A stretch of DNA of 64,000 nt from a virus (IMGVR_UViG_3300037454_000906:64001-128000); one strand, 5' to 3'; shown: positions 1,451-18,551, counted from the first letter of the stretch. Notes: generated by a model not told the origin, from the letters alone. Translations and numbers: made by a program.

Positions 1451-2029
1451 CTACTTCGATCTTCGCTCAAAGGCAACTTTGATGTAATCCTCGCCATTGC
1501 CGACATATGTATTGAGAATATCCCAACCTGTGGAACCTACCTTATTCCAAGGCCGGTCGAGGTAGAAACTGCGCATGGCGTTGATTGTTTCCACCACGGA
1601 AGCGCCCTCATCAAACTTTACGGGCATGACCTTGTCATATCCATCGGACACATCCACAAGTTCAAAGCCCAACTGAACACACTTGCCATCGTCAACGATG
1701 TCAATGAGTTCCACCTCGTCCTCGCCCTCTTCATGGAGCTCTGCTGTGTCGGAGAGTACATTGCTGAGCAGGCTATCGGGCATGGGAACGATTTTCAGTT
1801 CTATGCCCCACTTGTTCTCGTCCTTGGCCTCTCCGGTCATTTCGTATTGGTTTTTCGCGTGCATGACATACTTGTAGTCGAAATCAAGGGAACCATCGTC
1901 CTCTTTATGGTGATAAGTTTCCTTTGAAGCGAGGACAACCTCGTCATCCACATCGCGGATGGTGTCAAAAAGGTCGTTCGCCTTGAGAACATCATGGTCG
2001 AACGCCACACCGAAAATCTTGTGCTTCAT
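1451..2029 (-). CDS. hypothetical cassette protein (acidic)
   Basis: ORF track; start MKHKIF after element. Confidence 0.75.
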   Translation of the reverse strand: MKHKIFGVAFDHDVLKANDLFDTIRDVDDEVVLASKETYHHKEDDGSLDFDYKYVMHAKNQYEMTGEAKDENKWGIELKIVPMPDSLLSNVLSDTAELHEEGEDEVELIDIVDDGKCVQLGFELVDVSDGYDKVMPVKFDEGASVVETINAMRSFYLDRPWNKVGSTGWDILNTYVGNGEDYIKVAFERRSK

Positions 2030-2195
2030 TCTTGTAACTCCTTTCGTTGAACGTGCCCACGTTGTGCAGCCGGATCCCACCACCCGCGGGGCACAGGGCA
2101 TACGGTGGCGCCGATTCCAAAAATTAAAAATTAAGTGCCCAAGTGGGCACTAATGGAACATGATGGACTAACAGTCGGAATCTTCTTCGTCCTGG

Positions 2196-2753
2196 CTATT
2201 CGTAGATGCTGTATACGTTATGGTACGTCAGTCCGCCCTGGTCGAGCAGAATCCATCCATCGGGGTCCAAATTGTTCATGTCGCACACACCTTTGAGCGC
2301 GTCATTGGAACTAATCGGGGGCAATTTTCCATCGAACCCTACCCATTGGCATAGGTTATCGAGGAATTTCAACCCGTTGGCTGTCGAAAGGTCGGCACTG
2401 CTGTCGGGGTTAATGAGTTCGAGCTTTCCCTTCTTGGCCAGCTTGCGCTCGGCAGTGTCCGTGACCTCATAGAGGTCGGGAATTATGCTGTTGTGGAAGT
2501 TAGCCCAGTTGCCGTTGATTTGAGTGCGATCGTTATCACAGGAACTGTCATGGTATGTGAGCTGCAAGAGTTCATGGTACTTCGGGTTATAATAGACTGC
2601 GTAGTGGCGGTCAGATACTTCATGTGAATCCGTTACCTTAATACTCTTGACCTCGTCCGGTGTGAACGTGGAAAGAATACTATCCGTCAGTTTTACGCCG
2701 TCCGGCAGGTTGATTGCCACCGTAGCCTTGTAGGTTACTAACAGTCTTTGCAT
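2196..2753 (-). CDS. hypothetical cassette protein
   Basis: ORF track; element upstream. Confidence 0.75.
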   Translation of the reverse strand: MQRLLVTYKATVAINLPDGVKLTDSILSTFTPDEVKSIKVTDSHEVSDRHYAVYYNPKYHELLQLTYHDSSCDNDRTQINGNWANFHNSIIPDLYEVTDTAERKLAKKGKLELINPDSSADLSTANGLKFLDNLCQWVGFDGKLPPISSNDALKGVCDMNNLDPDGWILLDQGGLTYHNVYSIYE

Positions 2754-2804
2754 AATGTCTCCTTTCGTTGAACGTGCCCACGATGTTCCATCGGGTCCCC
2801 CCGA

Positions 2805-3074
2805 TCATGGTGAGGTCCTGTCACGGTCGGACGGCGACCACCATCGGGTGTCCTCAAACGAGGAGCCGTCATTCAGAGAGTTCTCGTTGTCGGATAGATA
2901 GACACGGCAATGGTTTGAAAATTCGCCTATGGTGCGTTCTACCCTGGATACGATACCGCGCACCCGCTTGTCGTCATTATACCCGACCTGCACATCGTCA
3001 CCCACACGGGGTGTCTCGTTGACCTGCACCAAGTAGGAACGGCCACACCAATCTACTATTTCAATATGGAGCAT
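2805..3074 (-). CDS. hypothetical protein
   Basis: Start MLHIEIV with GAGGA RBS, coupled to 3085-3594. Confidence 0.6.
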   Translation of the reverse strand: MLHIEIVDWCGRSYLVQVNETPRVGDDVQVGYNDDKRVRGIVSRVERTIGEFSNHCRVYLSDNENSLNDGSSFEDTRWWSPSDRDRTSP

Positions 3075-3084
3075 GGGTTCCTCC

Positions 3085-3594
3085 TCAGTAATTGAGCATA
3101 TTGCGGAGTTTTTCCGCATTGGATTTTTCAAGTTTTTTCTCGGCAAGTTTGCCCGCCTTGTGCCCTTCAAGCATGGCGACAATGGTCGCGACCGCATGGG
3201 TGAGCGAAGTCTGCTGAATGAACTCAAAGTCAAAGGTAGTGCCGTAAGAGTTCTGCTCAAAGATGTGATGGCTTTCAACCACGTTCCCCTGCATATACTT
3301 GCCAATCTGGTCACCACTGACAATCCCCCAATGGACAAGCACACAAGCGCACTTGATGTAATTGTCGCTTCGTTCGTGGTGATACGTGAAGAATGGGCAT
3401 ATTGAGGTGGCCACGAAGAGGACTGCGACCTCATTTTCGCCCGCCTTGGGCTTCTCGGACATAATGAATTCGGCAATGGCCGATTCGTCGTGAAGTTCCA
3501 CCCCGTAGCGGTTGTCGGGGCCACATGGGCTATAACTGAAGGCAAGCACCCCGTTCATGGAAGTAGGCTTGGCGTTAGCGTAAATGGTCTGCAT
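3085..3594 (-). CDS. hypothetical cassette protein
   Basis: Start MQTIYAN after element. Confidence 0.75.
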   Translation of the reverse strand: MQTIYANAKPTSMNGVLAFSYSPCGPDNRYGVELHDESAIAEFIMSEKPKAGENEVAVLFVATSICPFFTYHHERSDNYIKCACVLVHWGIVSGDQIGKYMQGNVVESHHIFEQNSYGTTFDFEFIQQTSLTHAVATIVAMLEGHKAGKLAEKKLEKSNAEKLRNMLNY

Positions 3595-3670
3595 ATCTGC
3601 TCCTTTCGTTGAACATCCCCACGTTGTCACACCGGGCACCACCGCGCATGGCACGCGGTGTACACGGCAT

Positions 3671-4117
3671 TTACCCATAATGGACGAAGAACGCATCATC
3701 AATGATGTCGCCATACTTTTGCTGCATGGCGGTGTATTCTTCGGTGGGCTTGTAGATATCCCCAAAACTTACGGAGAAATACAGGCCGTCCACCATGTCG
3801 TGGCAGTCCCCCTCGTTGGCCTTGTCGTGATATTCCGGCCAGATGCTGATGTTGGTTTCGTTGGTGAACTTGCCGGAAATCTCGTCCCATAGGGCATTGA
3901 GTGTCTTGTATTCCTGGCGGTCGGTGTCAATGTCGCCCGGATTTTCAAGGCTGAGCGTCTGCGCAAGAACTTCGCGGTCGCACACTTCGTGCTCGGTAAA
4001 CTTGTACCCGTTGAACTTTCTGATGAACTCATTGACAAGATTCTCGTCCCCGACCACCTTGATGAGGTTGTCGGCGCTGATTATGTGGGCACTGTTCGCG
4101 CCATATCCCGTAGCCAT
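3671..4117 (-). CDS. hypothetical protein (acidic)
   Basis: Start MATGYG with GGAGGTG RBS. Confidence 0.7.
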   Translation of the reverse strand: MATGYGANSAHIISADNLIKVVGDENLVNEFIRKFNGYKFTEHEVCDREVLAQTLSLENPGDIDTDRQEYKTLNALWDEISGKFTNETNISIWPEYHDKANEGDCHDMVDGLYFSVSFGDIYKPTEEYTAMQQKYGDIIDDAFFVHYG

Positions 4118-4145
4118 GCGGCACCTCCGTTTTGAAAAATAAATT

Positions 4146-4523
4146 TTACCTTTCGAGCAGGTAACACCCCGCCCCTCCCGTGGCCATGAAGGTCCCCGTG
4201 CCGAGCACCAACGTGGTGCCGTCAGCCGTCCCGTAGGTCTCCGTGAGCCCGTCAGCCGAGTAGGGGACGGTGGCCTCTGTGCACCTCTCGTCACCGGAGT
4301 ACCCGATGCACACCCATGATCGGCTCTCGTACTTCGTTATCTCAACGTGAAACCGCGCTTCCGTGGTCTCACCCATCGGCACATGGTCAAGGCACCCTAT
4401 CCTGGTCACTTTCCCGTAGTCCGTGGAGGAACTTCCCACCACGCGCTCGTCGGGTACCTCAGTGGGCCCCGTGGAACACGAAACGGCCATGAGCAGGATT
4501 GCAAAAATTAAAAGTTTCTTCAT
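4146..4523 (-). CDS. putative lipoprotein
   Basis: MKKLLIFAILLMAVSC signal peptide with lipobox-like Cys. Confidence 0.7.
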   Translation of the reverse strand: MKKLLIFAILLMAVSCSTGPTEVPDERVVGSSSTDYGKVTRIGCLDHVPMGETTEARFHVEITKYESRSWVCIGYSGDERCTEATVPYSADGLTETYGTADGTTLVLGTGTFMATGGAGCYLLER

Positions 4524-4672
4524 GATGTTACCTCTCGTCCGTCGTATCCCACGGTGTGCTCCCGGATTCCACCGCCCCGGGATCCCCGGACACGCGGTGG
4601 GAAAGGATCTAAATTAGTGGACAAAGAGGGGCGGGCCGTGGCCCGTCCCCCTTGTTCAGCGGAGTCAGATAT

Positions 4673-4873
4673 TTAACATTCGTATGCCAGGTAGAATTCA
4701 AGGGAATCCTGGCAGTGATGGTATTGTTTGAGGAAATTCTCGGCTTCATCCGGCGCCATTTGATGCAGGTCGCGCCAGAGTCTGGAATAGAGACCCTGCG
4801 AACCCGCCATGTCACCGATGTAACCCATGAGTCGCCTTGAATCCGCGCTCAGCGTGTCATTCAATCTTGACAT
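4673..4873 (-). CDS. small hypothetical protein
   Basis: ORF track; GGAGG RBS. Confidence 0.65.
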   Translation of the reverse strand: MSRLNDTLSADSRRLMGYIGDMAGSQGLYSRLWRDLHQMAPDEAENFLKQYHHCQDSLEFYLAYEC

Positions 4874-4882
4874 GTTGCCTCC

Positions 4883-5329
4883 TTATGCCGCTTCCAACTT
4901 GCTGCGCAGGTCACCGATTCGGTAGTAGAATCCCGATGTGTGCAGCGAATTGGCGAGCTTGAGATAGTGGATATCGTAGTGGTGCATGAACTCGTGCAGG
5001 AGCGTTCCCGTGAACGTCTTTATCGCGACAACCTTGTTGGTCTTTGCGGTATAGTTGTACACGTTGATGAACTTGCTCTCGTACACCCCGTTGCGCTTGT
5101 TGAGCCTGATGTAGCCCTTGGTGGTCACTCGGCCATTGACCTTTCGTGCCTTGTCGGCAACGTTGACCCTCACGCGGGGAATCTTGAACTCATCGCATAG
5201 GTAGTTGATGAGGTCCTGCGAGCTTGTCTCGCGGTCGCCAGTGTCGGCGAGCAAGGTCTGATATGCCGGAGTGGATAACTTCTCGCGATCAACTGTCGTG
5301 ATTGCTTTGGATTGTTCGTATGCGTCCAT
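4883..5329 (-). CDS. HExxH zinc metallopeptidase-like protein (SprT-like)
   Basis: GTLLHEFMHH motif followed by LANSLHTSGF (third His). Confidence 0.65.
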   Translation of the reverse strand: MDAYEQSKAITTVDREKLSTPAYQTLLADTGDRETSSQDLINYLCDEFKIPRVRVNVADKARKVNGRVTTKGYIRLNKRNGVYESKFINVYNYTAKTNKVVAIKTFTGTLLHEFMHHYDIHYLKLANSLHTSGFYYRIGDLRSKLEAA

Positions 5330-5471
5330 GCTTGACTCCTTTTATTGAACGTGCCCACGATGTATCCCCGGCCCCCACCAAGCGTGGGGCACCTGATACA
5401 TGGTGGGACGTGGCCAACACTAGTAAAAATTAATGCCCCTTTCGGGGCAAGGTTAGTGTTCAGATTCCCTG

Positions 5472-5879
5472 CTAGGGTTCAAATTCATGTCTTGCCTTGA
5501 CTCGCTCGTAGATACTAAGGATAGTCTGCTTGATAGACGGCCACCTATCCACGAATGCACCGAAGTGGTGGGGTGCGAAGTCATAGTAGAACCCTTCATC
5601 GTCCTTGAAGTGGTAATCACCGCAACCACTAGAAATATGAGGGTCATTGAACTTTGCCAAGGCAATGCAGCCTACACCCATCGCTATTCCACGTTCCTTG
5701 CAGATACTCCACCAATAGTGGTAGCCGTTCACTTCAAACTTGCCGCGTGCCCCATTGGAGTAAAGTTCATTAATGCAGTCCGCGGGAATGTTTTCCTTTA
5801 CCCAATTACGAATTTTGATTACATTCTTGATGGCAAGATAGTTCTTGTCACTCGGGTCTAAATCGTTGATGTTTCTCAT
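5472..5879 (-). CDS. hypothetical cassette protein, AT-rich
   Basis: Start MRNINDL after element. Confidence 0.75.
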   Translation of the reverse strand: MRNINDLDPSDKNYLAIKNVIKIRNWVKENIPADCINELYSNGARGKFEVNGYHYWWSICKERGIAMGVGCIALAKFNDPHISSGCGDYHFKDDEGFYYDFAPHHFGAFVDRWPSIKQTILSIYERVKARHEFEP

Positions 5880-6026
5880 GTTGTACTCCTTTTGTTGAAC
5901 GTGTCCACGATGTATCTCCGGCCCCCACCGATCGTGGGGCGCCTGATACATGGTGGTGCAGCATGTCAAAATTGAAAAAAAGTGGCAGGGGATTTCTCCC
6001 CTGCCGTGTTCATCGGAGTCAGAAAA

Positions 6027-6377
6027 TCAAACATTGTTGATTACTTCAATCTTGTCCTCGGGGAGCGATTCAAGGTAGGTCTCTATGCAATGCTTGACCT
6101 CGCACCACAGGAGTCCGTTTCCGTCCTTCCATTCCTCCCAAATCAATCCGTCAAGGGCCTTTTTGATGCCATACTCTTCGCGGCAGGAGAACCCCATCTC
6201 GCGGAACTGATCAAGGTCATGCATCTCGTCCATCACGGACACCAGCTCGCGCGCCCCGAAGTCATATCCGCCATACCTCCCTGTGGTGAGGATGATGGAA
6301 CTAAACGGAGAGGTCATGAGGATGCCATGATGGTCGGACACGTCATCCTGCTCGGAACTGTCGCTCGCGAAGTCCAC
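6027..6377 (-). CDS. hypothetical cassette protein (GTG start or 5' frameshift)
   Basis: The ATG after the SD (6379) opens only a ~21-aa frame; the long frame starts at GTG 6377. Confidence 0.5.
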   Translation of the reverse strand: MDFASDSSEQDDVSDHHGILMTSPFSSIILTTGRYGGYDFGARELVSVMDEMHDLDQFREMGFSCREEYGIKKALDGLIWEEWKDGNGLLWCEVKHCIETYLESLPEDKIEVINNV

Positions 6378-6532
6378 ATTTTTAACTCCTTTCGTTGAAC
6401 ATGCCCACGATGCGTCACCGGGGTCCACCGGGTGCGATGGGCCATGCACACGGATGGACAAAAGGTGTCCCCGCAAGAGGAGGCTCCGTCTCTAATGTGC
6501 CTGGGAGTTGTTCCTCCCCGTGCGGGGCAGTA

Positions 6533-6805
6533 TCATTTGATGGGCGTACGCTCCTTGTTCACAGACCATTCTTCACAGAAGCAAGAGAACGGGGCGAGTA
6601 GCGGACATAGCTCCTTGGCCCTGGCGATGGCCAGCTGAGCAAGCTCGCTATCGTTGGGCACGTGCGTCCCGTACACGCTGTCCGCGTTGACATCCGAGCC
6701 ATCGGGGTTGCACTGATGGTCAAGCGTGAGCCCCACCCATAGGGTCACGTCAAGGTTGCCTTCCTTGGGCAGCACGTGTACGTAATAGTGGAATTTTTCC
6801 CCCAT
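6533..6805 (-). CDS. hypothetical protein
   Basis: ORF track; GAGGAGG RBS. Confidence 0.7.
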   Translation of the reverse strand: MGEKFHYYVHVLPKEGNLDVTLWVGLTLDHQCNPDGSDVNADSVYGTHVPNDSELAQLAIARAKELCPLLAPFSCFCEEWSVNKERTPIK

Positions 6806-6973
6806 CTAGTCCTCCTCGCTAACTCGCTTGTTACGTGGTTTCTTGCGCTTGTCAGGCACCTTCCGTGTGCGGAGCTTGCGCCCGTTCTCGGTCTCGGATA
6901 TGCGGATGGCGCGCTGCCCCTTGCTTTCTTTCCCGTCAACCGAAATTGAAATTGTGATTGTCATGTTCTTCAT
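6806..6973 (-). CDS. small basic cassette protein
   Basis: Start MKNMTI after element; Lys/Arg-rich. Confidence 0.6.
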   Translation of the reverse strand: MKNMTITISISVDGKESKGQRAIRISETENGRKLRTRKVPDKRKKPRNKRVSEED

Positions 6974-7105
6974 CGCTGACTCCTTGTTTCCGAACGCACC
7001 CACGATGTGCCGCCGGGGTCCACCGCCCGCGCATCCAGCGGCACACGGTGGCACCGGGGCGAAATTGAAAGAAAAAGTAAACTTTCGTTTACCCTTTCTT
7101 CCCTA

Positions 7106-7393
7106 CCGTTAACTGAAACCTACCTAAATCTACCACTAGGACAGACCTACGTGATTTCCTGCCTTGCCCATTGCTGAGTAGGCCGTAACGGCACTTAATC
7201 AACCGCATCTACGCGATATACCTAATATGCATCAAGCAACACGGCTGACTTGCCTAGTCCTACTCCATTACTGAAGAGCCTTAACACGGTCGGCATATCA
7301 AACTAGGCATTGTTAAATATACATTATTTCCATTAGCATATTTAAGTATATTTAGTTAAATGTTGTTAACATTTTCGTTAACTGCTAACAACC
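7106..7393 (-). mobile_element. non-autonomous IS607-like element (left end + omegaRNA-like right end), copy 1
   Basis: ~288 bp, nearly identical to 24028-24313. GG at both junctions, preceded by TGTG. Right end (AGGAAATCACG...TAGGTTTCAGTTAACGG) homologous to the TnpB element end at 20480-20542. Interrupts a small ORF. Confidence 0.8.
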
Positions 7394-7497
7394 CACACAC
7401 CAAGCATGAATACCGCGAAGGCGCCACCGAGCATCGGATGTACCGAGTAGAGGTATCCGGTCACGACGAGCGCTCCGATGAATGCGAGGCACCCCAT
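7378..7497 (-). CDS. small membrane protein, 3' end replaced by the inserted element
   Basis: MGCLAFIGALVVTGYLYSVHPMLGGAFAVFMLGVW|VVSS*; removing the element gives ...VWVGKKG*. Confidence 0.6.
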   Translation of the reverse strand: MGCLAFIGALVVTGYLYSVHPMLGGAFAVFMLGVWVVSS

Positions 7498-7504
7498 GGT
7501 CGCC

Positions 7505-7645
7505 CTACTTGCGCCTGCGGAACCTGCCGTAAAGGTCGGTGTTCCCGTTGGAGTGTACGTTCACGGGGCGCACAGAGGGCAGTCCCGCGCTCTTCGCGGC
7601 AAAGGAGGCGAATTTGAAAAATTTTGTGGAGATGAGTCTGAGCAT
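7505..7645 (-). CDS. small basic hypothetical protein
   Basis: TAATG overlap with upstream gene; MLRLISTKFFKF... Confidence 0.45.
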   Translation of the reverse strand: MLRLISTKFFKFASFAAKSAGLPSVRPVNVHSNGNTDLYGRFRRRK

Positions 7646-8157
7646 TAGTCCTCCTCGGTCTGAGTGTCTTCTGTCCGTTCCACGAGGCGCCCATAGAGCA
7701 TCGTGTTGCCGTCAACGATTTCCACGCCGTCGGTGGGGAGGTTGGGTGCAACGTGGATGATGTCATTCACGCGCACGCACTTCGGGTCCTTTATTCCTTC
7801 CGGTCGGCGCATGGTGACAGGACCTGCGGTCAGCATGATGCTGCCGTTGTCAAGGCGCCCCACGAGAAGAGTGTAGTTGAGCTCTTTCAAGCGCTTGGCA
7901 AAGGGCGCAAAGAGGTCGCGCAATTCGCGAAAGTTGCCGAGGTATCCATCGGGATTTCCCATCATCTTGCTTGCACGGATTAAGCCCTGCGCGTTGACGA
8001 TGCGTTCAATGAGTTCGGTGCCGTCCTGCGCCACGTCAATGGCACGCTTGGCTCCGCTAATGATGCCGACGGCTCCCGCGATGCTCTGACGCTTGGTTAT
8101 GAGGATGTTGCGCGTCACTGCAAGTGCACGGAGTTCTTCGTTAGTAAGTTCGTCCAT
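7645..8157 (-). CDS. hypothetical cassette protein
   Basis: Start MDELTNEE after element. Confidence 0.75.
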   Translation of the reverse strand: MDELTNEELRALAVTRNILITKRQSIAGAVGIISGAKRAIDVAQDGTELIERIVNAQGLIRASKMMGNPDGYLGNFRELRDLFAPFAKRLKELNYTLLVGRLDNGSIMLTAGPVTMRRPEGIKDPKCVRVNDIIHVAPNLPTDGVEIVDGNTMLYGRLVERTEDTQTEED

Positions 8158-8244
8158 GTCTGTCTCCTTTTGTTGAACATGCCCACGATGTGCCCCCGGG
8201 TCCCACTGCACATGGGACACCGGGCACACGGTCGTTGGATAGAT

Positions 8245-8451
8245 CTACCGATTCACCTTGAAAACGAGGTCGGATTCGGCATTGACCACGGGGAACTCCT
8301 TGACCTCATAGTGGTCATAGTCCGTCCACGAGTCGGGCATGGCGCGCAAGTCCGCGTCCGCGAGCTCCATGCTCGTATAGATGCAGGTCCTCCCGTTGCG
8401 ATTGATGGGGGTGTTGGACCCGAACATCACGATGGCGAAAATCTTGTCCAT
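8245..8451 (-). CDS. small hypothetical protein
   Basis: Start MDKIFAIV, coupled to upstream gene. Confidence 0.6.
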   Translation of the reverse strand: MDKIFAIVMFGSNTPINRNGRTCIYTSMELADADLRAMPDSWTDYDHYEVKEFPVVNAESDLVFKVNR

Positions 8452-8461
8452 GCTATACCCC

Positions 8462-8809
8462 CTAGTGCCAGTTGGCCTTCTGCGCGTCCCAAAATTCGTG
8501 GATGAACGCGGTTGCCTCGGCTTCCGTGATATGGCAACGGGTGAAGTCGTCGCTGAACGGCTCCGAGCGGTACGACACGATACCATTGGAATTGTCGCAA
8601 AATTCCCTGCGGAACACGCACATGGTGCCCGTCACGGTATCCCAATAGATGTTGAATTCGTTCTTCTCGTGGTCCTTGAAGATGACATCGCCCTGAATTT
8701 CCCAATTCCCGCGCCTGTTGCGGGCGCGCTTGACCTTCTTCAAGACTTTGACCTCGGCGATAGCCGCAATCTTGTTCTCAAATTGTTTTGTGAGAGAAAC
8801 ATTTGCCAT
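8462..8809 (-). CDS. hypothetical cassette protein
   Basis: Start MANVSLT after element. Confidence 0.75.
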   Translation of the reverse strand: MANVSLTKQFENKIAAIAEVKVLKKVKRARNRRGNWEIQGDVIFKDHEKNEFNIYWDTVTGTMCVFRREFCDNSNGIVSYRSEPFSDDFTRCHITEAEATAFIHEFWDAQKANWH

Positions 8810-8957
8810 AGTTGACTCCTTGTTAGTTGTTTTCTGAACATGCCCACGATGTGCCCCCGGATCCCACCGCAAGTGGGACATCTGACACGCGGTGGGGCGC
8901 GAGGTTGAAATTGAAAAATGTTGGCAGGGGTTTCCCCCTGCCGTGTTCATTCGGAGT

Positions 8958-9464
8958 CTAGTTCTGTTTAAAGGATAGAATCTTCTCCTTGCCGTCAAGT
9001 AGGGTAACCAAGTCGTTCTGACTTTCGTCAAGGGCATTGCCTTGGTCAAACAGGTACTCGGAGCTAACCCCGTGGTCATAGTCATCGCCGTTGCCGTTGC
9101 CGAAGAACAGCCCATCGGGTATGATGATCAGGTGATAGTCGCAACGCATGTCCACGGCCAACTGCATCTTGTATTCGGCCAACTTGTCCGACAGCGGTCG
9201 GTAGAGCCGTTGGATTTCCCTGCACTTGCTGTGAAAGTCCTGTGAGGTCATGACCGCGGACACGCTGGACTTGACTTCGGCGTCCGTTTGGTGTTGGAGC
9301 AATTCGTCAATGAGTATGCAGGCTGAATCAAGGGTCGCGCCGACAGACTGGTCACCCGCCGACTTCGGGCATTCCTTTGGCCATTCCGTGATGGACTTAT
9401 TCTCCCTGAACATGCGCTTTACGATATTGAGCGCATTGATTTCTTCGTCAGTAAACTTTCGCAT
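8958..9464 (-). CDS. hypothetical cassette protein
   Basis: Start MRKFTDEE after element. Confidence 0.75.
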   Translation of the reverse strand: MRKFTDEEINALNIVKRMFRENKSITEWPKECPKSAGDQSVGATLDSACILIDELLQHQTDAEVKSSVSAVMTSQDFHSKCREIQRLYRPLSDKLAEYKMQLAVDMRCDYHLIIIPDGLFFGNGNGDDYDHGVSSEYLFDQGNALDESQNDLVTLLDGKEKILSFKQN

Positions 9465-9588
9465 GGTTGACTCCTTTTGTTGAACATGCCCACGATGTGT
9501 CACCGGGCCCCACTGCACGCGGGAAACCGGACACACGGTGGCCATAATAGGCCGCATGGGAAATGGTGCTCGGCTGAGCACCTATATC

Positions 9589-10104
9589 CTATTTGCAGCA
9601 GACCTTGATACATTCGGCAAGCGTGGCAACCGCAATACATTCGGTGCCGCACGGCTTGTTCTTCTCGCATTCCTTGGGAATAATCAAGGTCTTGCCTTTG
9701 CATGTCTTACTCGTCACATCATTATAGACAACACTAGCAAACTCGCTAGGGCGGTTCAGACGCCCGTCAAGGCTCAAATTGCCGAAGAACGTATACTTGT
9801 CCGCGTCAAGGGTCACTTCGCCCGTGGCAGCAAGCAAGCCCATGGCGACCGCCAAATCAAGTCCATCGGTGGCCGATGAACGATACAAGCCACGGACATT
9901 CATGGTTGTGTTGAAACCCGTGATGACCTTCCCCGTTTCACGGACGGCACATCTCACCCTGTCAAGGACACCGCAGTCCTTCGGAAGGCCGAACTGGGTC
10001 AATGACGGGGTGCCGCTTGCGGAACTGACCTCAATCTCAACGGGGCTGACTTGGAAATAATTTGCGTCACAATGGTGTGCGATGGTGATAATTCTTGCGA
10101 ACAT
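9589..10104 (-). CDS. stand-alone ComM/YifB (Mg-chelatase-related) N-terminal Lon-like domain
   Basis: VEIEVS..GTPSL..FGLP..DRVRCAVR...DLAVAMGLLAA...FFGNLSLDGRL pattern; no AAA+ Walker motifs. Confidence 0.7.
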   Translation of the reverse strand: MFARIITIAHHCDANYFQVSPVEIEVSSASGTPSLTQFGLPKDCGVLDRVRCAVRETGKVITGFNTTMNVRGLYRSSATDGLDLAVAMGLLAATGEVTLDADKYTFFGNLSLDGRLNRPSEFASVVYNDVTSKTCKGKTLIIPKECEKNKPCGTECIAVATLAECIKVCCK

Positions 10105-10253
10105 GTTTAACTCCTTTGCTGAACACTCCCACGATGTGTCACCGGGTGCCACCGATCGTGGCACACCGGACACACGGTGGAAACAATGGATGCAAGTTAA
10201 AAAATTTAGTGCCCAAGCGGGCACTAATTGTAAAATTAAATTATCGTCCGACC

Positions 10254-10778
10254 CTATTTGGCACAAAGCACTTCCATCTTGTCGGCAAGGTCGCTCCCGC
10301 ATTTCTCGCTGAGAACCGACTTCGCCTTTTCAATGGCGTCCGCTCGGGTACATTCGGTGACTTTGATGGCGATGACCATGCTCTCTTGGTCATTGGAGTG
10401 TTCGTCCGACTGCCCGAACCCGAACTTGACGGACCATTCACGGGGGTCAAGTGACTCCTTGTACTTGTCAATGACGACCTTCTCGATGTGCTCCCTCAGC
10501 TGCCGTGTTATCGGGCAGCAGACGCTGCGGCAGTCTTCCCCCTTGTAGAAGGGGTCATTCGGATAGCCTACATAGAGGCCATTCTCCACCGCACCTTCCA
10601 TGATGCGAAGACCCCTGATTTGGAACTGGTCATTGAGGACGATAGCCGCCAATCCCAACAGATGTCCCATAGACGGGCCTTCCGTGAAGGGGAACACCTG
10701 CACCTGCGTAACTGCGAGGCAATCAAATGCGGACGAGGTTTCTTTTTCTTTTTCTTTTTCTGCTGCTTTCTTGCCCAT
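10254..10778 (-). CDS. SpoVG-family nucleic-acid-binding protein with C-terminal extension
   Basis: VTQVQVFP...AAIVLNDQFQIRGLRIMEG..GLYVGYP...CCPITRQLREHIEKVVIDKY. Confidence 0.8.
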   Translation of the reverse strand: MGKKAAEKEKEKETSSAFDCLAVTQVQVFPFTEGPSMGHLLGLAAIVLNDQFQIRGLRIMEGAVENGLYVGYPNDPFYKGEDCRSVCCPITRQLREHIEKVVIDKYKESLDPREWSVKFGFGQSDEHSNDQESMVIAIKVTECTRADAIEKAKSVLSEKCGSDLADKMEVLCAK

Positions 10779-10900
10779 AGCTGAACTCCTTTTTCTGAAC
10801 ATGCCCACGATGTTCCACCGGATCCCACCGCGCGCGGGGCACCGAATCCATGGTGGGAATGAAAATAAAAAATTGAAATTCGGGCTTTCGCCCGATTTCA

Positions 10901-11452
10901 CTATTTGCACTTCGCCTTGATTTCTGTGCGGTTGTCAAGGAACCACTTGATGTCTTCCACCAAATTTTCAGCGGTCTCTTCCACTGAATTGGCGTTGGCG
11001 CCCACTGCAAGCAACTTCTTTACTTGGTCAAGTGAGTCAGCATGTTCCTTGCGCTTTTGGGCGATAAAGGCGTAACACTTGGCAAGGCTATCCTTTCCTG
11101 CCTCTCCAAAGAACTTGGCAAAATGCATGCCCACATACACTTCCACCTCGTAGTTGTTTTGGTTTAAAACGCAGTGGCCCGTTTTCAGCAATTGGTCCAT
11201 GTGGACACTTGCATTAAAGATTTCGGGGCCGTAGCAATGGAGCAGGCAACGTTGATAATCCTCCTTGCCAATGGTCTGAATGCCGAGTTCGTGGCGATAG
11301 GAATAGCTGGACTTCTTAGAAAGGACGAAATAGAGCTTGTCCGATTCTACGCGGGCATAGTCTTTCACTTCTACTTTGTCGGAATTTACATCAACATTGC
11401 CAACGATTTCAAATGCGTAGCGGTTGGTGTAGCGAATAATGGTTGTAGCCAT
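10901..11452 (-). CDS. hypothetical cassette protein
   Basis: Start MATTIIR after element. Confidence 0.75.
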   Translation of the reverse strand: MATTIIRYTNRYAFEIVGNVDVNSDKVEVKDYARVESDKLYFVLSKKSSYSYRHELGIQTIGKEDYQRCLLHCYGPEIFNASVHMDQLLKTGHCVLNQNNYEVEVYVGMHFAKFFGEAGKDSLAKCYAFIAQKRKEHADSLDQVKKLLAVGANANSVEETAENLVEDIKWFLDNRTEIKAKCK

Positions 11453-11615
11453 AATGGACTCCTTTTGTTGAACATGTCCACGATGTTCCACCGGATCCCA
11501 CCGCACATGGGACACCTGGAACATGGTGGGGGCGCAGTCAATAAAAAATGAAATCCCGAATGTCCTCATGGGTGTTAAGCCCCCCACCGCGCCGATTGGA
11601 CATTCGGGATAAAGG

Positions 11616-11756
11616 TTAAATTCTCAGAACCGAACGGCAGACATGCACCATGTCCCCGAAGATAACGTCACGCCAACGACAACCCACGCAGAACACGCCT
11701 TTAACGATGGACGGGGCTGGCTTGGTCGGCACACGCTTGCTATGCTTTCCCATCAT
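11616..11756 (-). CDS. small Cys-containing hypothetical protein
   Basis: Hand translation MMGKHSKRVPTK...CVGC; overlaps upstream stop. Confidence 0.4.
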   Translation of the reverse strand: MMGKHSKRVPTKPAPSIVKGVFCVGCRWRDVIFGDMVHVCRSVLRI

Positions 11757-11988
11757 CCCCATCCTTCACGGGAGTCAGCGCCCCGTTAGAAATCAAAAAT
11801 TCATGGAGCTTCTTGGTCACAAGGTATTCCTTGCCGTCAACGTTGTAGGTGTACACGGAGAAACACTTTTCCCCCTTGCGCACGAATCCGGTTATGGAAT
11901 CGGAAACCGTGATGTCAGCCTTGCTCGCCTTTAAAATGTCAGCGAGCGCATCGTGGTCGGCCCTGCACTTCTTGAAAAAATTCTGCAT
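11740..11988 (-). CDS. hypothetical cassette protein
   Basis: Start MQNFFKK after element. Confidence 0.7.
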   Translation of the reverse strand: MQNFFKKCRADHDALADILKASKADITVSDSITGFVRKGEKCFSVYTYNVDGKEYLVTKKLHEFLISNGALTPVKDGDDGKA

Positions 11989-12140
11989 TTCAAACTCCTT
12001 TTCTGAACATTCCCACGTTGTGCCGCCGGACTCCACCCGTCACGGGAATCCAGGCCCGCGGTGGGCGCCCTTGTCACAAAAAACGTATCGCTTTTGTGAC
12101 AACCCCGCCCCCGATGGGGGACGGGTGTCCACCCCCATGC

Positions 12141-12467
12141 CTAGACGGCAACCGAGCCCGCTTGGTGCAGCTCGGGGACATACGCATAGACACGCCAATG
12201 CCCCTCGGTGTAATGCGTTTCGGCCCAAAGAGCCGCCTGTGTCGGGTTGTCAAAGGTCATGCCGTTCTCGTCGTCACGCCATTCCCCGACCGCATAGCTC
12301 TCTTTCTTGCCCGTCAAGGGATTGTCCTTGTGGCCGATGAACTTTCGGAACCATACTTCCCCACTGACCTTGTAGGTCACGCTAGGGAACATCTGTTTCA
12401 AAATAGTGTAGGGGAGTTGTTCTATTTCCCTTGCGTTGGCTATCGCCATGAGTTCGTTATTGCCCAT
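12141..12467 (-). CDS. hypothetical cassette protein
   Basis: ORF track; element upstream. Confidence 0.75.
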   Translation of the reverse strand: MGNNELMAIANAREIEQLPYTILKQMFPSVTYKVSGEVWFRKFIGHKDNPLTGKKESYAVGEWRDDENGMTFDNPTQAALWAETHYTEGHWRVYAYVPELHQAGSVAV

Positions 12468-12610
12468 TTGGTACTCCTTTGATGAACATGGTCACGATGT
12501 GCCGCCGGCCCCCACCACCCGTGGCCCATCGGACACACGGTGGAACCGGAGCCCACACCGAAAAAAGAAAAGGAAAAGGGTCGCCCCATTCCTTTTCTGT
12601 GGAAAAAACC

Positions 12611-13036
12611 CTAGTCCTTTTCTATGGAAACCTTATCCAATACGTAAATATCCCCGTTGGATAACTTGATGGCGTCATGCTCCGAGAGGTCGGCCATGGC
12701 GCTGCAACAGCCCCATTCGGCAGTGAATCCCCAATGGGCGATGGCGGCCTCGCGCCAGCTCTTGTAGTCCGTTCCGGCCTTCTCGTTGTAGGGCCCGATC
12801 TTCTCGTTGTCAATCGCCGGACCTTCGTCATTTTTGAGGTAGATGGCCGAGCATCCGGTAAAGCCGCCTTCAAGCAAGGACAGGGCGCAGTCGTTGTTGA
12901 TTTCATGGGCAAGAGCCTCTTCGCCCTTCTTCTTGCGGGTGAACCACTTGTCCACCCCATCGTCATTAGCGTTGCGGGTTTCAAGGTGATAGACCTTGAT
13001 TAGCTTGTAGGGCTGCTCCAAAAAATTTTTCTTCAT
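12611..13036 (-). CDS. hypothetical cassette protein
   Basis: Start MKKNFLE after element. Confidence 0.75.
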   Translation of the reverse strand: MKKNFLEQPYKLIKVYHLETRNANDDGVDKWFTRKKKGEEALAHEINNDCALSLLEGGFTGCSAIYLKNDEGPAIDNEKIGPYNEKAGTDYKSWREAAIAHWGFTAEWGCCSAMADLSEHDAIKLSNGDIYVLDKVSIEKD

Positions 13037-13222
13037 GGTTGTATCCTTTTGTTGAACACACCCACGCTGTGCAGCCGGACCCCACCCGCCGCGGACCCAC
13101 GGGAACATGGTGGAACCGGTCATCCTTCCGGCACCGGGTACATGGTGGAACCCGGATAATTTCCGTTACAGAAAAGGGGCAAGGGCGAACCCCTGCCCCC
13201 CGTTCATCGGAGTCAAAAGCCC

Positions 13223-13546
13223 CTAGTCGGTCATGCGGTAGAAGTAGTCCGCTGCGTCCCCTTCAAGCATGTCGCACGCATACGTGTCCGCCGTGCGCCA
13301 AAGTTCGTCATAGAGTTTCGCATACTCAGGGTTTTTCTCGTGCCATTCCCAAATCTTGTGGTTGAGGGCGATGACGAGGTGGGTGAGGTAGCGGTAGTCA
13401 CGTTTCCATTCGTTGAACGCCCGGTTGAACGTGTCACGGATGGCCTTTACCCCGAACTTATCAGCAATGGTGAAGTCGCTGGGGAACGTGGTGGAGAACC
13501 CCTCCTCGTTCAACTTTTCCGAAATTTTCTTTTCCTTGGTTTCCAT
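13223..13546 (-). CDS. conserved phage hypothetical protein
   Basis: TTFPSDFTIADKFG..AIRDTFNRAFNEWK..YLTHLVIALNHKIW, a pattern I recall from gut phages; not searched. Confidence 0.7.
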   Translation of the reverse strand: METKEKKISEKLNEEGFSTTFPSDFTIADKFGVKAIRDTFNRAFNEWKRDYRYLTHLVIALNHKIWEWHEKNPEYAKLYDELWRTADTYACDMLEGDAADYFYRMTD

Positions 13547-13715
13547 GTAGCCTCCTTTTTCTGAACATGCCCACGGTGTATCCCCGGACCCAACCGATCG
13601 CGGGGATCCGGATACACGGTTGGCACCAGGTAAAAAATTTGGGGGAATGCCCACCCAAAATATTCGGGGAACTTCTATATCGTATTGGATGCCGTTTTGA
13701 AAGCCCCGTTAAACC

Positions 13716-14312
13716 TTAAATCCCCTGCATTCCCTGTTCAAAAATTTCGGGATAGAGCCTACAAATTGAAGTATATCCGCTCCGACCGATGACGATGTGG
13801 TCAAGCACAGGAAGTTTCAAAATTTTTCCCGATGCGCATAGCACTCGGGTCAATGTAATATCCTGCTCGGATGGCGCAGTGTCACCGCTCGGGTGATTAT
13901 GGGCAAATATGACACTCACTGCATTGTCAAGTATAGCAAAACGGAACGATTCCCGTGGGGCGCATTTGGTTTCGTTCACGAGCCCCTTGGTCACGATGTG
14001 CTTGCCGATGATATGGTTGTGTGAATCAAGGGTCACCACAACCATGTTTTCCTGCCGTTCCCACTTCAACCACGATACGTGATTGACGATTGTGGAAGGG
14101 TCGGTGACGGATATTGCCCTAGTCCCAGCAAGATACTCCGCAGAACTCTCCATGACCATGAGCAGAGTGTTGGCAACGTTCATGCCGACACCACGGAACT
14201 TCACAAGGTCGTTCGCCTTTGCGTAGGGGTTCTCGGCGAGATAGTCGGCAACCCTTATACCCGTGTATTCGTCGCCTATTATGCGACCGAAAATCTGTGC
14301 CAAACTTGTCAT
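13716..14312 (-). CDS. radC: RadC-like JAB/MPN domain protein
   Basis: QENMVVVTLD...APRESFRFAILDNAVSVIFAHNHPSGDTAPSEQD...LPVLDHIVIG; start MTSLAQ after element. Confidence 0.9.
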   Translation of the reverse strand: MTSLAQIFGRIIGDEYTGIRVADYLAENPYAKANDLVKFRGVGMNVANTLLMVMESSAEYLAGTRAISVTDPSTIVNHVSWLKWERQENMVVVTLDSHNHIIGKHIVTKGLVNETKCAPRESFRFAILDNAVSVIFAHNHPSGDTAPSEQDITLTRVLCASGKILKLPVLDHIVIGRSGYTSICRLYPEIFEQGMQGI

Positions 14313-14461
14313 GGCGAACCTCTTTGAATTGAACATGCCCACGCTGTTCCGCCAGGGCCAACTGCACGCGGGGATCCGGATACACGGTTGGCGCGGCTCC
14401 CCCGAGGAAAAAAGTTTGGTGCCCGTGTGGGCACCTAGTTCACTCCCATGTCCCGCACGGC

Positions 14462-14779
14462 TTACGGAGTCACCAACTTCGCCCTGTCCTTGAACCAATC
14501 GGTCGCCACAATCTTGGCATAGTCGGGCTGCTTGGGGTTTGCCTTGAACGCATCGTTCACGGCTTTCATCATGGTGTCGTTGCGGAAATAGAGGACCTTG
14601 CCCTCGGCCTCCACATTGATGAACGGAGACCATCCATCCTCCACTTGGTAACGGGCGTCCTTGGCTTCCTCCTCGGTAGAAAATTCCACCTCGTAGTGCT
14701 TGGTCTCCTTGATGGGCTTGGCCGACTCGGCCATCATCGCAGCCATCGCCAATTCGCCAATAACATTGATTCCCGACAT
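14462..14779 (-). CDS. hypothetical cassette protein
   Basis: Start MSGINV after element. Confidence 0.7.
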   Translation of the reverse strand: MSGINVIGELAMAAMMAESAKPIKETKHYEVEFSTEEEAKDARYQVEDGWSPFINVEAEGKVLYFRNDTMMKAVNDAFKANPKQPDYAKIVATDWFKDRAKLVTP

Positions 14780-14916
14780 TGCAAACTCCTTTTGAACATG
14801 CCCACGATGTATCCTCGGCCCCAACCGCCCGCGGGAATCCGGATGCACGGTTGGCGCCGATGATAAAATTTTTAAAGGAAGGTGCCCAAGTGGGCACCTT
14901 TTTTCGTGGCTACAAG

Positions 14917-15324
14917 TTAAAGGTTAAAGTTGATTTCGTGTTTCAGTTCGTCGGGGATTTCGTCTTTGAGGATTTTGTCGTCATCCCACACGGAGTCGGG
15001 AATGTAGCCGTCCCCGTCAGGTTCGGCGAACCCGTTCTTGATGGCGTCACGCAGAACGCCCATGTCGCCCTCGTCAATCTTGCGGAGCTCGGCCACGGAG
15101 AGCTGAACGCTCATGCCGACACGCATCCAAATCTTGTGCTTCTTGTTTTCGTCAATTTCCTTTTTCTCGGGTTCGGGACATTCCCCGCTTTCGGAATTTT
15201 CTTCCGCTTCGCCGAAATCATCGTCGGACGGGGCGGGATTTTCAAACCCGCAGTCCATACAGAAAAACTGTCCGTTGTCTTCCGAGATGTTCTCGCTGCC
15301 GCAATTCCAACACTTCTGTGCCAT
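14917..15324 (-). CDS. zinc-ribbon protein with acidic linker
   Basis: CWNC-x12-CMDC at the N-terminus. Confidence 0.75.
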   Translation of the reverse strand: MAQKCWNCGSENISEDNGQFFCMDCGFENPAPSDDDFGEAEENSESGECPEPEKKEIDENKKHKIWMRVGMSVQLSVAELRKIDEGDMGVLRDAIKNGFAEPDGDGYIPDSVWDDDKILKDEIPDELKHEINFNL

Positions 15325-15467
15325 ATTGTACTCCTTTCGTTGAATGTTCCCACGATGTTCCACCGGACCCCACCGCATGCTCCACCCAGGGAACACGGTG
15401 GACGCCCGGCCACCCCGAGGTACATGGGCGCCCCGATGCAGTATCGGGGCGCCCCGTTTCCTCCCTC

Positions 15468-15719
15468 TTAGCCCTGTACCAAAGACCAGCTGGGATGCTT
15501 GACCATTCGGCCCGACTTGTCAAGTCCGTGAATCCACTTCTTGACGATGCGCCACCCGATAAGGCGATAATCTTCCCGTTCGGTGCGGTACCAGATGCTG
15601 CCGTTGTTGTAGTCAACGAACACGCCGAGGAACGCACCGCCCGCACGCTTGGCGGCTTCCCATGCCTTTTGGCACAGATTGCGCAACTGACCCATGACCT
15701 TGTAGACGAATTTTTTCAT
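15468..15719 (-). CDS. hypothetical cassette protein
   Basis: Start MKKFVYK after element. Confidence 0.7.
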   Translation of the reverse strand: MKKFVYKVMGQLRNLCQKAWEAAKRAGGAFLGVFVDYNNGSIWYRTEREDYRLIGWRIVKKWIHGLDKSGRMVKHPSWSLVQG

Positions 15720-15845
15720 TTCCTGAACTCCTTTGGTTGAACATGCCCACGTTGTATCCCCGGAGTCCACCGGATCAGTTACCCCGGATACCCGGTGGGC
15801 GCCCGTGAACCCGTGGGGAAAGGGGACGCGCCCCGTCCCCCTTGG

Positions 15846-16331
15846 CTAGTCAATAAGATATTTCCAGTCTCGGATTATGCCCTCAACGTCCACCTCGGCA
15901 CCTGTGGCTACATCAACGAACACCCCGTGCGCGGGACACCAAAGGACACTATGGCGATGGTTCCCCAAGTAGTCAACCCCCACCACCTTTGCCGCGTACT
16001 GGGCTCCGTTGTGGCGCAGACCCATCTTCACGGGGGTGTACTGGAAGATGTGACCCTCTTCCATGAGGCGCCTGACGAGCTCCGTGAGGCCGTCCTCGGG
16101 CAGGTTCACCTCAACCACTTCCCAGTAATGGATGCACCCGCGGTAGTCAAGGCTGACTGCCTCGTCGGTGACCTCGGGATCCGCCTCGATTCCTTCCCGT
16201 TCCTTGAATTCAAGGGCTAAGCGGAGAGCCTCCCCCTTGGCCAAGTCAAACGTTTCGCAAGGTTCGCCCTGTTGGCCGGTGATGCTTTCATGCGAATCGC
16301 ACCTGTTGACAACGATGTATTTGATTGACAT
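15846..16331 (-). CDS. hypothetical cassette protein
   Basis: Start MSIKYIV after element. Confidence 0.75.
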   Translation of the reverse strand: MSIKYIVVNRCDSHESITGQQGEPCETFDLAKGEALRLALEFKEREGIEADPEVTDEAVSLDYRGCIHYWEVVEVNLPEDGLTELVRRLMEEGHIFQYTPVKMGLRHNGAQYAAKVVGVDYLGNHRHSVLWCPAHGVFVDVATGAEVDVEGIIRDWKYLID

Positions 16332-16458
16332 ATGGCTCCTTTTCTGAACGTGCCCACGGTGCGCCGCCGGACCCCACCGGATCCGGTTCACGGGGAACAC
16401 GGTTGGCGCGGTTCCCCAGAGGCGAAAAGTTTGGTGCCCATGTGGGCACCTAGTTCAC

Positions 16459-16665
16459 TCATGCTGCCTTCTTCATGGAATCATATTCCGCACGGAGTTC
16501 ACGGAGTCTGGCGTCACGGTACCCAATGAACCTCGTCCACTGCTCGTGCCAACGATGGGACCTGCCCACATCCCGCATGTTCGCCATGTGGTCAAAGATG
16601 CCGTCGCAGATGCGGCAAAGGGTCATGTACTTCTTGTCCGAATGGACGCATTCCTTGAAATTCAT
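16459..16665 (-). CDS. small hypothetical protein (CxxC)
   Basis: ORF track; CRIC motif. Confidence 0.6.
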   Translation of the reverse strand: MNFKECVHSDKKYMTLCRICDGIFDHMANMRDVGRSHRWHEQWTRFIGYRDARLRELRAEYDSMKKAA

Positions 16666-16688
16666 AGCGTACCACTTTAAAAAATTTT

Positions 16689-16874
16689 TTACATGCCGCT
16701 CTCAATGGCCATGGAAAAGTCAACGCAGTCCTTGCAGCCGTGATACCTGCTCAGCGCGGCCTCGGTCTGCTCGGGACCCATCTCATCAAAATATTTCAGA
16801 AGACGCCCGTAGAACCCCTGAGCACGGGAAAGGGCCCTTATCCACCCGAGTATGGTCTTGGTCTTTTCGCTCAT
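16689..16874 (-). CDS. small cassette protein
   Basis: Start MSEKTKT after element. Confidence 0.65.
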   Translation of the reverse strand: MSEKTKTILGWIRALSRAQGFYGRLLKYFDEMGPEQTEAALSRYHGCKDCVDFSMAIESGM

Positions 16875-17113
16875 GTTGAAACTCCTTTTCTGAACACGCC
16901 CACGGTGCACCGCCGGACCCCACCGGATCCGCTACGCCGGGCACACGGTGGCGCCGCACGCGTCACGATACAGGAACGGGCGGTTCCCGAGGGGTATCGG
17001 GAACCGCCCGTCATTGCTTGGCTCGGGCTTCGGATGCCAGTTTCGCCCTGCGGTCGCCTATTCATATCGTCGTAAGTTGGACATCCCGACCCGACGACCT
17101 TGCCACATATCCG

Positions 17114-17257
17114 CTACTTGCCCACGGGGCGCACCACGCACGGGAATCCCGCTGCGCTGCGCTTGGCAGCGTTCCTGTCCGCAACCGACTTCTTGTAGTG
17201 GGAAGAGAAAAGGTTGAGACCGGCAGTGGTGACCGAGTAAACGCCATACTTTTTCAT
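17114..17257 (-). CDS. small basic cassette protein
   Basis: Start MKKYGVY after element. Confidence 0.55.
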   Translation of the reverse strand: MKKYGVYSVTTAGLNLFSSHYKKSVADRNAAKRSAAGFPCVVRPVGK

Positions 17258-17396
17258 TTTGTAACCTCCGTTGTTTGAACATGCCCACGTTGCGCCCCCG
17301 GACCCAACCGCCCGCGGGACATCCCGGACACGGTGGGGCGCGCCGTGTCCCTTGAAGCATGGTGCCCATATGGGCACCCCGTCTCCCCCCGTGCAA

Positions 17397-17780
17397 TTAC
17401 TTCTTCATTTCGTCCCCCCTGCTGAGCTCGTTTAGCACGAGCGTGTTCATGTCCGTCTCGGGCGCCTCCAAGAGCGAGAGGACCCTGTGCAGAGTGTGGT
17501 TCGGCATGTAGCCGAATTCGAATGCACGCTTTGAGCCGTCTTTGTCATCGCACACGATTACGGGATTCATGTCGGCTCCAGCGGCCACATGGGTTATCGT
17601 GAACTTCAGGGGAGGCATATATCCCTTGATGCTGAACTTGACGGGTTTCGGGAGAGGCACCAGCTTTTTACGCTGATCGGCCTCGCTGCATTCGGGGAAC
17701 ATTGCCCCCGCCTTCGCCATGATGCTCTTGTAGAGGTGCTCCCTGTACATTACCGCAGTGAATACGCCCATAGATGCCAT
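17397..17780 (-). CDS. hypothetical cassette protein
   Basis: Start MASMGV after element. Confidence 0.7.
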   Translation of the reverse strand: MASMGVFTAVMYREHLYKSIMAKAGAMFPECSEADQRKKLVPLPKPVKFSIKGYMPPLKFTITHVAAGADMNPVIVCDDKDGSKRAFEFGYMPNHTLHRVLSLLEAPETDMNTLVLNELSRGDEMKK

Positions 17781-18510: not shown

Positions 18511-18551
18511 ATTTTTATGAATAATATAAGCTGTATTATAGATACAGTGGG

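Follow-up and report, generated by a model that had tools for sequence, protein, structure and literature searches.

A bulged hairpin element of roughly 55 nt stands directly 5′ of almost every start codon in positions 1-18,100 of the window, the 64,000-nucleotide stretch of virus DNA that was analyzed (bases 64,001-128,000 of the 253,117-bp record IMGVR_UViG_3300037454_000906; CheckV completeness 99%), and the minus strand carries all of the genes in that region. We tentatively propose that this element is a phage-specific, hairpin-dependent start signal in a terminator/restart cassette resembling the PeSL cassettes of T4-like phages. This reading was rated the most likely because strong terminators lie directly upstream of the element and no other promoter was found in or before the array of small genes that carries it.

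A profile search of the genome with nhmmer gave 76 element matches, every one of them on the minus strand and confined to a 74-kb block (genome 8.3-82.1 kb), with zero elsewhere in the genome. A covariance model (CM) gave 66 matches on the same genome, the 14-mer CGTGGGCATGTTCA with three or fewer mismatches retrieves 29 copies, and 25 elements were counted inside positions 2118-17379, the range flagged by an initial annotation of the sequence (Table 1). The copies align gap-free over about 75 nt with the consensus CCCACCGTGT-NN-CCGG-TGTCCCGCG-NN-CGGTGGGG-N-CCGG-N-GG-CACA-N-CGTGGGCATGTTCA-ACAAAAGGAG, and the ATG follows 5-7 nt further on. Abbreviated, the ∼60-nt element reads CCCACCGTGT-NN-C ... 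G-NN-ACA-N-CGTGGG-CATGTTCA, followed by AAAGGAG and ATG; the CATGTTCA tail belongs to the copies at genome 60-82 kb, and in more distal copies the hairpin part is retained with a different A-rich tail. The junction between the element, the A-rich leader, and the Shine-Dalgarno (SD) sequence is gap-free in most copies. On the 5′ side, the module often opens with the stop codon of the preceding gene, TAG or TAA, immediately followed by CCCACC. This stop abuts CCCACC exactly in 10 cases, its end falls between −2 and +4 nt in 24 of 67, and the element seems to supply its own stop codon. Throughout the distal array the element usually begins directly at the stop of the gene before it. Five copies, at window 345 (genome 64345) and at genome 21981, 44908, 45478, and 46420, have an additional 75-220 nt of non-coding sequence between them and the next SD. 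Insertions may have hit some of these; the five copies count in favor of a start signal, as the element in them is not tied to a ribosome site. The idea that the elements are more conserved than the genes was dropped, their pairwise identity being only 63-70%. The non-coding region ahead of the array (18100-18790) contains conserved islands, a GGGTACCCGGTACCC palindrome and ATTTTGATTTTTT, together with a repeated AATGTTTACA.

The first line of evidence for the restart reading is the presence of terminators. At least 13 elements had been reported to lie behind intrinsic terminators, and this holds: about 18 of the 25 elements in the flagged range have a stable upstream hairpin (ΔG ≤ −11 kcal/mol), and 14-16 of these have a T-rich tail. 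The GTGCCC-N4-GGGCAC family, reported six times, occurs exactly six times in the window (2135, 10209, 14419, 14882, 16434, and 17362), where 0.01 would be expected by chance, whereas only two of the three reported GGCAGGGG..CCCCTGCC hairpins are exact (5984 and 8923) and the third (13175-13194) is imperfect. Both families lie on the minus (coding) strand, 14-60 nt upstream of an element and mostly 19-23 nt. In 14-16 of the 25 modules, a canonical terminator (a GC stem with T5-7 immediately after it) has its end 17-24 nt 5′ of the element. The flagged range also includes several hairpins without a T run (9565-9582, 15426-15454, and 17361-17378) and 3-5 elements without any upstream hairpin. Some GTGCCC members have an AAAC spacer ahead of the T run, or no T run, and are probably weak as terminators. 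The GGTGCTCA..GAGCACC family, followed by AAWTCCC and devoid of a T run, is kept between phages (window 9565-9582; loci L160, L161, L170, L220, and others) and keeps the same ∼20-nt distance to the element. Over the whole array, the terminators are concentrated in the first 29 kb (∼20 of 38 modules), with 1-2 among the 38 modules of the remaining 45 kb. Serial read-through of ∼20 such terminators is unlikely.

The same arrangement was found in related phages, where 278 distinct modules comprised 126 with a hairpin and T-rich tail, 66 with a hairpin only, and 86 with neither. Of the 192 hairpin-bearing modules, 118 have the 3′ end of the hairpin 17-24 nt ahead of the element, and many relatives have textbook terminators, such as a GGGCAC stem followed directly by TTTTTATTTTT. 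Modules behind unrelated hairpins share a spacer motif of approximately TTTTTATTTTTCATTTTTTGCC, both at the related loci and in the window (2113-2133, 5411-5433, and 5961-5983). The spacer ends at a fixed position in a −35-like TTGNYY; as a −35 box this was rejected, there being no −10 at 16-18 nt. When a long module was folded, the U run of its terminator (5961-5983) could pair with the A-rich leader and SD beyond the element (5868-5884), a pairing that may be incidental.

The second line of evidence is the absence of conventional promoters. Host-type promoters are lacking at the elements, in agreement with the initial annotation: the pattern TTGNNN-N16-18-TANNNT is present in 1 of the 76 modules versus 2.8 ± 1.6 in random array segments. 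The TTGCCA-N17-TAYATT promoter does recur at window 23-63 kb as had been described (6 exact and 13 relaxed matches), and the genome holds ∼30 members of this class, none of them on the minus strand of genome 16-82 kb. The class is of the sigmaA type with a TG extension, GTTGCCA-N14-TTGCTAYATT (for example, window 30082-30110 and 35237-35265, minus strand), and the ATG is often only 6-7 nt past the −10 box, which suggests leaderless messages. A second class, TATAAACT, resembles the T4 late motif and has 26 exact occurrences in the genome, mostly 15-40 nt upstream of structural genes and without a conserved −35; it is located at genome 175-253 kb and also at window 18663, 42815, 44289, 47104, and 49647. 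All of the other gene blocks have one of these clear promoter classes directly upstream (∼30 sigmaA-type and ∼26 TATAAACT), whereas the ∼700-nt non-coding stretch upstream of the first element has neither a sigmaA-type nor a late-type promoter on the array strand. For one gene within the array region (genome 15.9 kb), a sigmaA-type promoter occupies the slot of the element.

Other sigma specificities were considered for the element and rejected. A sigma-54 promoter was defined by GG at −24 and GC at −12, 12 nt apart, and judged from the alignments; although many copies contain TGGCAC (as in TGGCAC-N5-..), their −12 position is a covarying NN pair instead of GC. An extracytoplasmic function sigma reading (AAC ... 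CGT) has a spacing of only ∼12 nt. A SigB-like −10 box (GGGNAT, with GGGTAT common in relatives) is not conserved in the more distant phage G005 (IMG/VR contig 3300028797_000098) despite its 53%-identical sigma factor. The genome search for polymerase or sigma genes that the initial annotation had called for succeeded on the second count only, with one sigma-70-family gene found and no RNA polymerase. The sigma gene (genome 7448-8215, minus strand, 256 amino acids; phrog_351 at 6.8e-25) has NCBIfam matches to regions 2 and 4; it closes the array, following an FtsK/SpoIIIE-like gene, and its G005 counterpart is in the same position.

The combination of terminators, a unidirectional array, and a sigma gene placed last in two phages could also be explained by processive antitermination of the nut or put type, in which the nascent hairpin, with or without a phage protein, would make the polymerase ignore the next terminators and the array would be a single timed operon ending in the sigma gene. 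The terminators indeed lie between cassettes and cluster in the first 29 kb, and the element is a conserved hairpin with invariant bases. We nevertheless regard antitermination as improbable: known systems use one site per operon, not 76, most copies in the distal 45 kb have no downstream terminator, an upstream promoter was not identified, and TGTTCAAC resembles boxA only to a limited degree, a likeness that G005 lacks. As a BoxA candidate, TGTTCAAC was rejected on the same grounds.

The element itself folds into a bulged stem of ∼16 bp capped by a loop of 9-10 nt. From the base upward, P0 (CCCAC/GTGGG) and P1 (TGT-NN-C/G-NN-ACA) are separated by a small internal loop, and P1 and P2 by an asymmetric one. 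In this genome the proposed nested fold is 76% paired, with covariation that exceeds both controls. Among 135 distinct best copies from relatives, one P1 pair is AU in 68, UA in 31, GC in 24, CG in 4, and unpaired in 5, the neighboring P1 pair is UA in 77 and CG in 50, and one P2 pair is GC in 104 and CG in 23; slid-partner controls collapse. In G005, P2 varies and yet stays paired (GTCCCC/GGGGAC, GGCGCC/GGCGCC, and GCCCCC/GGGGGC). Because P1 and P2 covary, pairing of the hairpin is under selection. About 38 positions, most of the stem bases among them, are at least 90% conserved in the relatives' set, which indicates that sequence is read as well as shape. RNAalifold alone did not give a useful consensus. 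Two further helices were rejected: the alternative helix 18-24:45-51 of alignment A1, which is based on one A-T double change in three adjacent copies and is contradicted by P2 covariation elsewhere, and a short stem within the internal loop (31-33:54-56), which is unsupported in relatives. The elements had zero matches in an Rfam scan (E ≤ 5), ARAGORN found no tRNA-like fold, megablast against phage GenBank records gave no match, and we could match the element to no published description in the literature.

Covariation of this kind is also consistent with a somewhat unlikely but substantial alternative, that the element acts as RNA in long read-through transcripts. It would then be an intercistronic hairpin bound by a phage or host protein and would serve as a processing site (RNase III-like), a 5′ or 3′ stabilizer, a translational operator for ∼76 genes, or a combination of these, with leaky upstream terminators whose only effect is to grade expression along the array. 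In hundreds of copies from several phages, compensatory changes preserve the pairing of P1 and P2. Single copies fold as predicted, the copies form one contiguous co-oriented array, most are joined without gaps to the A-rich leader and SD, and in the distal two thirds the hairpin begins at the previous stop without a terminator. In addition, the ∼22-nt AU-rich single strand between two stable hairpins is, by our reasoning, a plausible endonuclease target. Set against these points are the strong canonical terminators directly upstream of many copies and the lack of either recognizable promoter class before the first element, such that an RNA role must assume both leaky terminators and an unseen upstream promoter. 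Nearly all of the stem bases are invariant, beyond what pairing needs, the phage has no RNase III gene, and five copies are far from any SD. The mismatches also fail to favor RNA: in relatives, G-U and A-C are equally frequent at the covarying pairs (8 versus 8) and number 56 versus 120 over all 20 pairs. The corresponding counts for this genome's own copies are 92 and 64. As G-U is not commoner than A-C at the covarying pairs, these data are silent on whether the fold is one of RNA or of DNA.

A pattern scan of metagenomes revealed many rumen contigs carrying arrays of the element, and a CM search of 184 kb of related contigs gave 295 copies, all of those on any one contig sharing the same strand. 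The order of the cassettes differs between relatives, and blocks of homology end at the 5′ edge of the element. Such shuffling could mean that the element is primarily a recombination or mobility module, either a homologous-recombination hotspot or a folded single-strand recombinase site, with expression secondary; the PeSL precedent and the covariation without a G-U bias, which is compatible with one arm of a DNA quasi-palindrome templating the correction of the other, are in line with this view. We assign it little probability. Templated correction would erase the conserved internal loops and invariant asymmetric bases that are retained, integron-type R boxes are not present, the SD link is fixed in most copies, and the expression of genes behind terminators would be left unexplained. 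Integron attC sites (RYYYAAC ... GTTRRRY, with variable sequence and a conserved fold) were rejected specifically, as GTTCAAC misfits RRRY, there is no 5′ AAC box, and the element is highly conserved in sequence.

Returning to the restart reading, each cassette comprises, in order, an optional intrinsic terminator and conserved T-rich spacer, the ∼55-nt bulged hairpin, a short A-rich leader, and the SD and start codon. The element occupies the site that holds the early promoter in the PeSL cassettes of T4-like phages, and it would be the point where expression of the cassette restarts. Recognition would depend on the invariant bases plus pairing of the arms, as at the N4 virion-polymerase promoters. 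The element might be read by the host RNA polymerase with a phage factor, for which the sigma factor from the distal end of the array is a candidate, or by a polymerase yet unrecognized, and the upstream terminators would insulate the proximal cassettes from each other. The broader claim, that a structure-dependent promoter is present at ∼76 copies per genome in a whole clade of rumen jumbo phages and is served either by the host RNA polymerase, aided by a sigma or accessory factor of the phage, or by an unrecognized polymerase, seems to us rather unlikely.

Several observations count against a start signal at the element. A −35/−10 pair could not be assigned within it, and the tail after ATCGT, including the −10-like GGGNAT box, is not conserved in G005. 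Covariation of P1 and P2 means that intramolecular pairing is selected, which is unusual for a double-stranded promoter, and duplex DNA would not readily extrude a bulged hairpin of this size (∼16 bp, with a loop of 9-10 nt); an RNA-level role or antitermination fits the covariation at least as well. About two thirds of the copies, those of the distal array, have no terminator, and the single contiguous co-oriented block, with its mostly fixed SD distance and about two thirds of the copies abutting the previous stop, suits an intercistronic RNA element. The phage sigma factor may serve the TTGCCA...TAYATT class or the late class instead. Pfam models for the two large multisubunit subunits and for T7-like enzymes detected no RNA polymerase gene; PF00940 (T7-like polymerase) gave no match in this genome and none in control genomes either, a scan for DxDGD had one match only, inside a CxxCxGxG zinc finger, and comparisons of the giant proteins with PHROG, Pfam, and PDB (the last by sequence searches with four of them) revealed no resemblance to polymerases. 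The only precedent, N4, needs a virion polymerase of the kind not detected here. The initial annotation had inferred that transcription must start at the element or that a phage factor must override the terminators. Its logic is borne out, as real terminators precede many genes and nothing other than the element is conserved where a promoter would lie, but the specific mechanisms that it named remain hypothetical: no polymerase was found, the hairpin is far larger than those of N4, and the sigma factor is not tied to the class of the element.

The closest known arrangement is that of the PeSL and PmSL composite terminator-promoter cassettes of T4-like phages (Arbiol 2010, PMC2839356), for which the published PeSL order is stem-loop, AT-rich tract, promoter, SD, and ATG (Comeau 2014, PMC4122927). 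The phage array shares this order of parts, its small ORFan genes in a plastic region, its many repeats, and its shuffling between relatives. A stem-loop lies just upstream in ∼18 of the 25 flagged-range modules and is absent from most distal copies, the AT-rich tract corresponds to the conserved T-rich spacer of the long module form, and this phage also has the T4-like late motif TATAAACT. The two differ in that the promoter slot is filled here by a 55-nt GC-rich covarying hairpin and in PeSL by a sigma-70 or Mot-box promoter, and in that the 76 copies here form one unbroken 74-kb block, most without a stem-loop. The early hairpin promoters of N4 combine invariant stem bases with bases that are free if pairing is kept (PMC4496689). 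The element likewise is in the promoter position with two pairing arms and a mixture of invariant and covarying stem bases. The N4 promoters, however, number 3, have stems of 5-7 bp and 3-nt loops centered at −11, and are read by an injected polymerase of 3,500 amino acids, compared with a bulged stem of ∼16 bp, a 9-10-nt loop, 76 copies, and no detected polymerase gene here; the size, the copy number, and the missing polymerase argue against membership in the N4 family.

Two RNA-based systems were also compared. The RNase III hairpins of T7 and SP82 early genes are bulged, span about two helical turns, and are intercistronic, just before the next ribosome site; those within one phage resemble each other and number about ten or fewer per genome. 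The element is similarly an intercistronic bulged hairpin just before the next ribosome site, but the T7 and SP82 sites belong to terminator-free polycistronic transcripts with mapped promoters and are much less constrained in sequence. Lambda nut and HK022 put act in cis as RNA hairpins, enabling polymerase to read through intrinsic terminators, and number one or two per genome, near the promoter; no sequence or structural similarity to the element was found, and there are 76 sites here.

Table 1. Elements, upstream hairpins, and associated features, given in window coordinates (scores are CM bits; ΔG in kcal/mol).
Feature	Position	Strand	Remarks
One-directional small-gene array, window part	1..18087	-	Whole array spans window −55.7 kb to 18.1 kb; 76 nhmmer and 66 CM matches
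Non-coding region between array and divergent plus-strand gene	18100..18790	.	Some islands also conserved in a relative; near 18190-18260, a degenerate stretch resembling the element
Example sigmaA-type promoter (TTGCCA-N17-TAYATT with TG extension)	28464..28491	-	
Element, first (most upstream) of array	18012..18087	-	75
Element	17787..17862	-	79.3
Hairpin GGTGCCC-N4-GGGCACC	17361..17378	-	No T run; 20 nt before element
Element	17265..17340	-	73.7
GC hairpin, 32 nt	16978..17009	-	ΔG −27.5; weak T tail; 22 nt before element
Element	16880..16955	-	67
Hairpin GGTGCCC-N4-GGGCACC	16433..16450	-	Then AAACTTTTCG
Element	16334..16409	-	68.7
GC hairpin	15821..15841	-	ΔG −15; weak T tail
Element	15727..15802	-	71.5
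GC hairpin, 29 nt	15426..15454	-	ΔG −26.2; no T run
Element	15330..15405	-	69.3
GTGCCC-family hairpin	14880..14899	-	Then TCCTTTAAAAATTTT
Element	14785..14857	-	73
GTGCCC-family hairpin	14418..14435	-	Then AAACTTTTTT
Element	14319..14394	-	71.6
Element	13551..13626	-	88.4
GGCAGGGG family, imperfect third member	13175..13194	-	Then CCTTTTCTGT; 60 nt before element
Element	13042..13117	-	69.5
Hairpin	12567..12596	-	Then TTTTTT; RNAfold
Element	12472..12547	-	69.3
Two adjacent hairpins, GC stem and GTCACAAAAG..TTTTTTGTGAC type	12071..12125	-	
Element	11993..12068	-	68.6
Long hairpin	11555..11608	-	ΔG −26.6; then ATTTCATTTTTT
Element	11458..11533	-	90.3
Terminator-like hairpin	10880..10895	-	Then ATTTCAATTT
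Element	10785..10860	-	82.5
GTGCCC-family terminator	10206..10227	-	9-bp stem; then ATTTTTT
Element	10109..10184	-	84.5
GGTGCTCA..GAGCACC hairpin	9565..9582	-	No T run; family recurs in related phages
Element, top score	9470..9545	-	91.5
GGCAGGGG-family terminator	8923..8942	-	Then AACATTTTT
Element	8824..8899	-	71.2
Element, no upstream hairpin	8163..8238	-	87.7
AT-rich hairpin	7070..7099	-	Then T-rich tail
Element	6980..7055	-	51.8
Element	6385..6460	-	65.8
GGCAGGGG-family terminator	5984..6005	-	Then ACTTTTTTT
Element	5885..5960	-	85.6
Terminator TGCCCCGAAAGGGGCA	5434..5449	-	Then TTAATTTTT
Element	5335..5410	-	87.2
Element, hairpin part only	4548..4601	-	35.5
Element	3599..3674	-	61.8
Element	2758..2833	-	53.6
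GTGCCC-family terminator	2134..2151	-	Then TAATTTTT
Element	2037..2112	-	78.4
Element, outside flagged range	1023..1098	-	64.6

Apart from the array, the genome encodes a 2728-amino-acid protein (genome 232225-240411, minus strand) with dozens of ∼60-amino-acid repeats (SGGIP-DTDLS...ADKVSGATNGNFAGLDSNGNLTDSG), which is probably a fiber.

If the element starts transcription, it would define a promoter of a new type for gut jumbo phages of a large, uncultured clade, and a hairpin promoter would be the second case after N4 in which folding takes part in promoter recognition, on a very different scale. If it acts as RNA, it would be a new family of cis-regulatory RNA, with gene-by-gene control over almost a third of the phage genome. 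Either way, the element is a marker for the accessory genes of these phages, a set with a probable role in host takeover, and it explains how ORFan genes with no relation to each other can be exchanged as ready-to-express cassettes; it also offers a compact, portable expression module to try.

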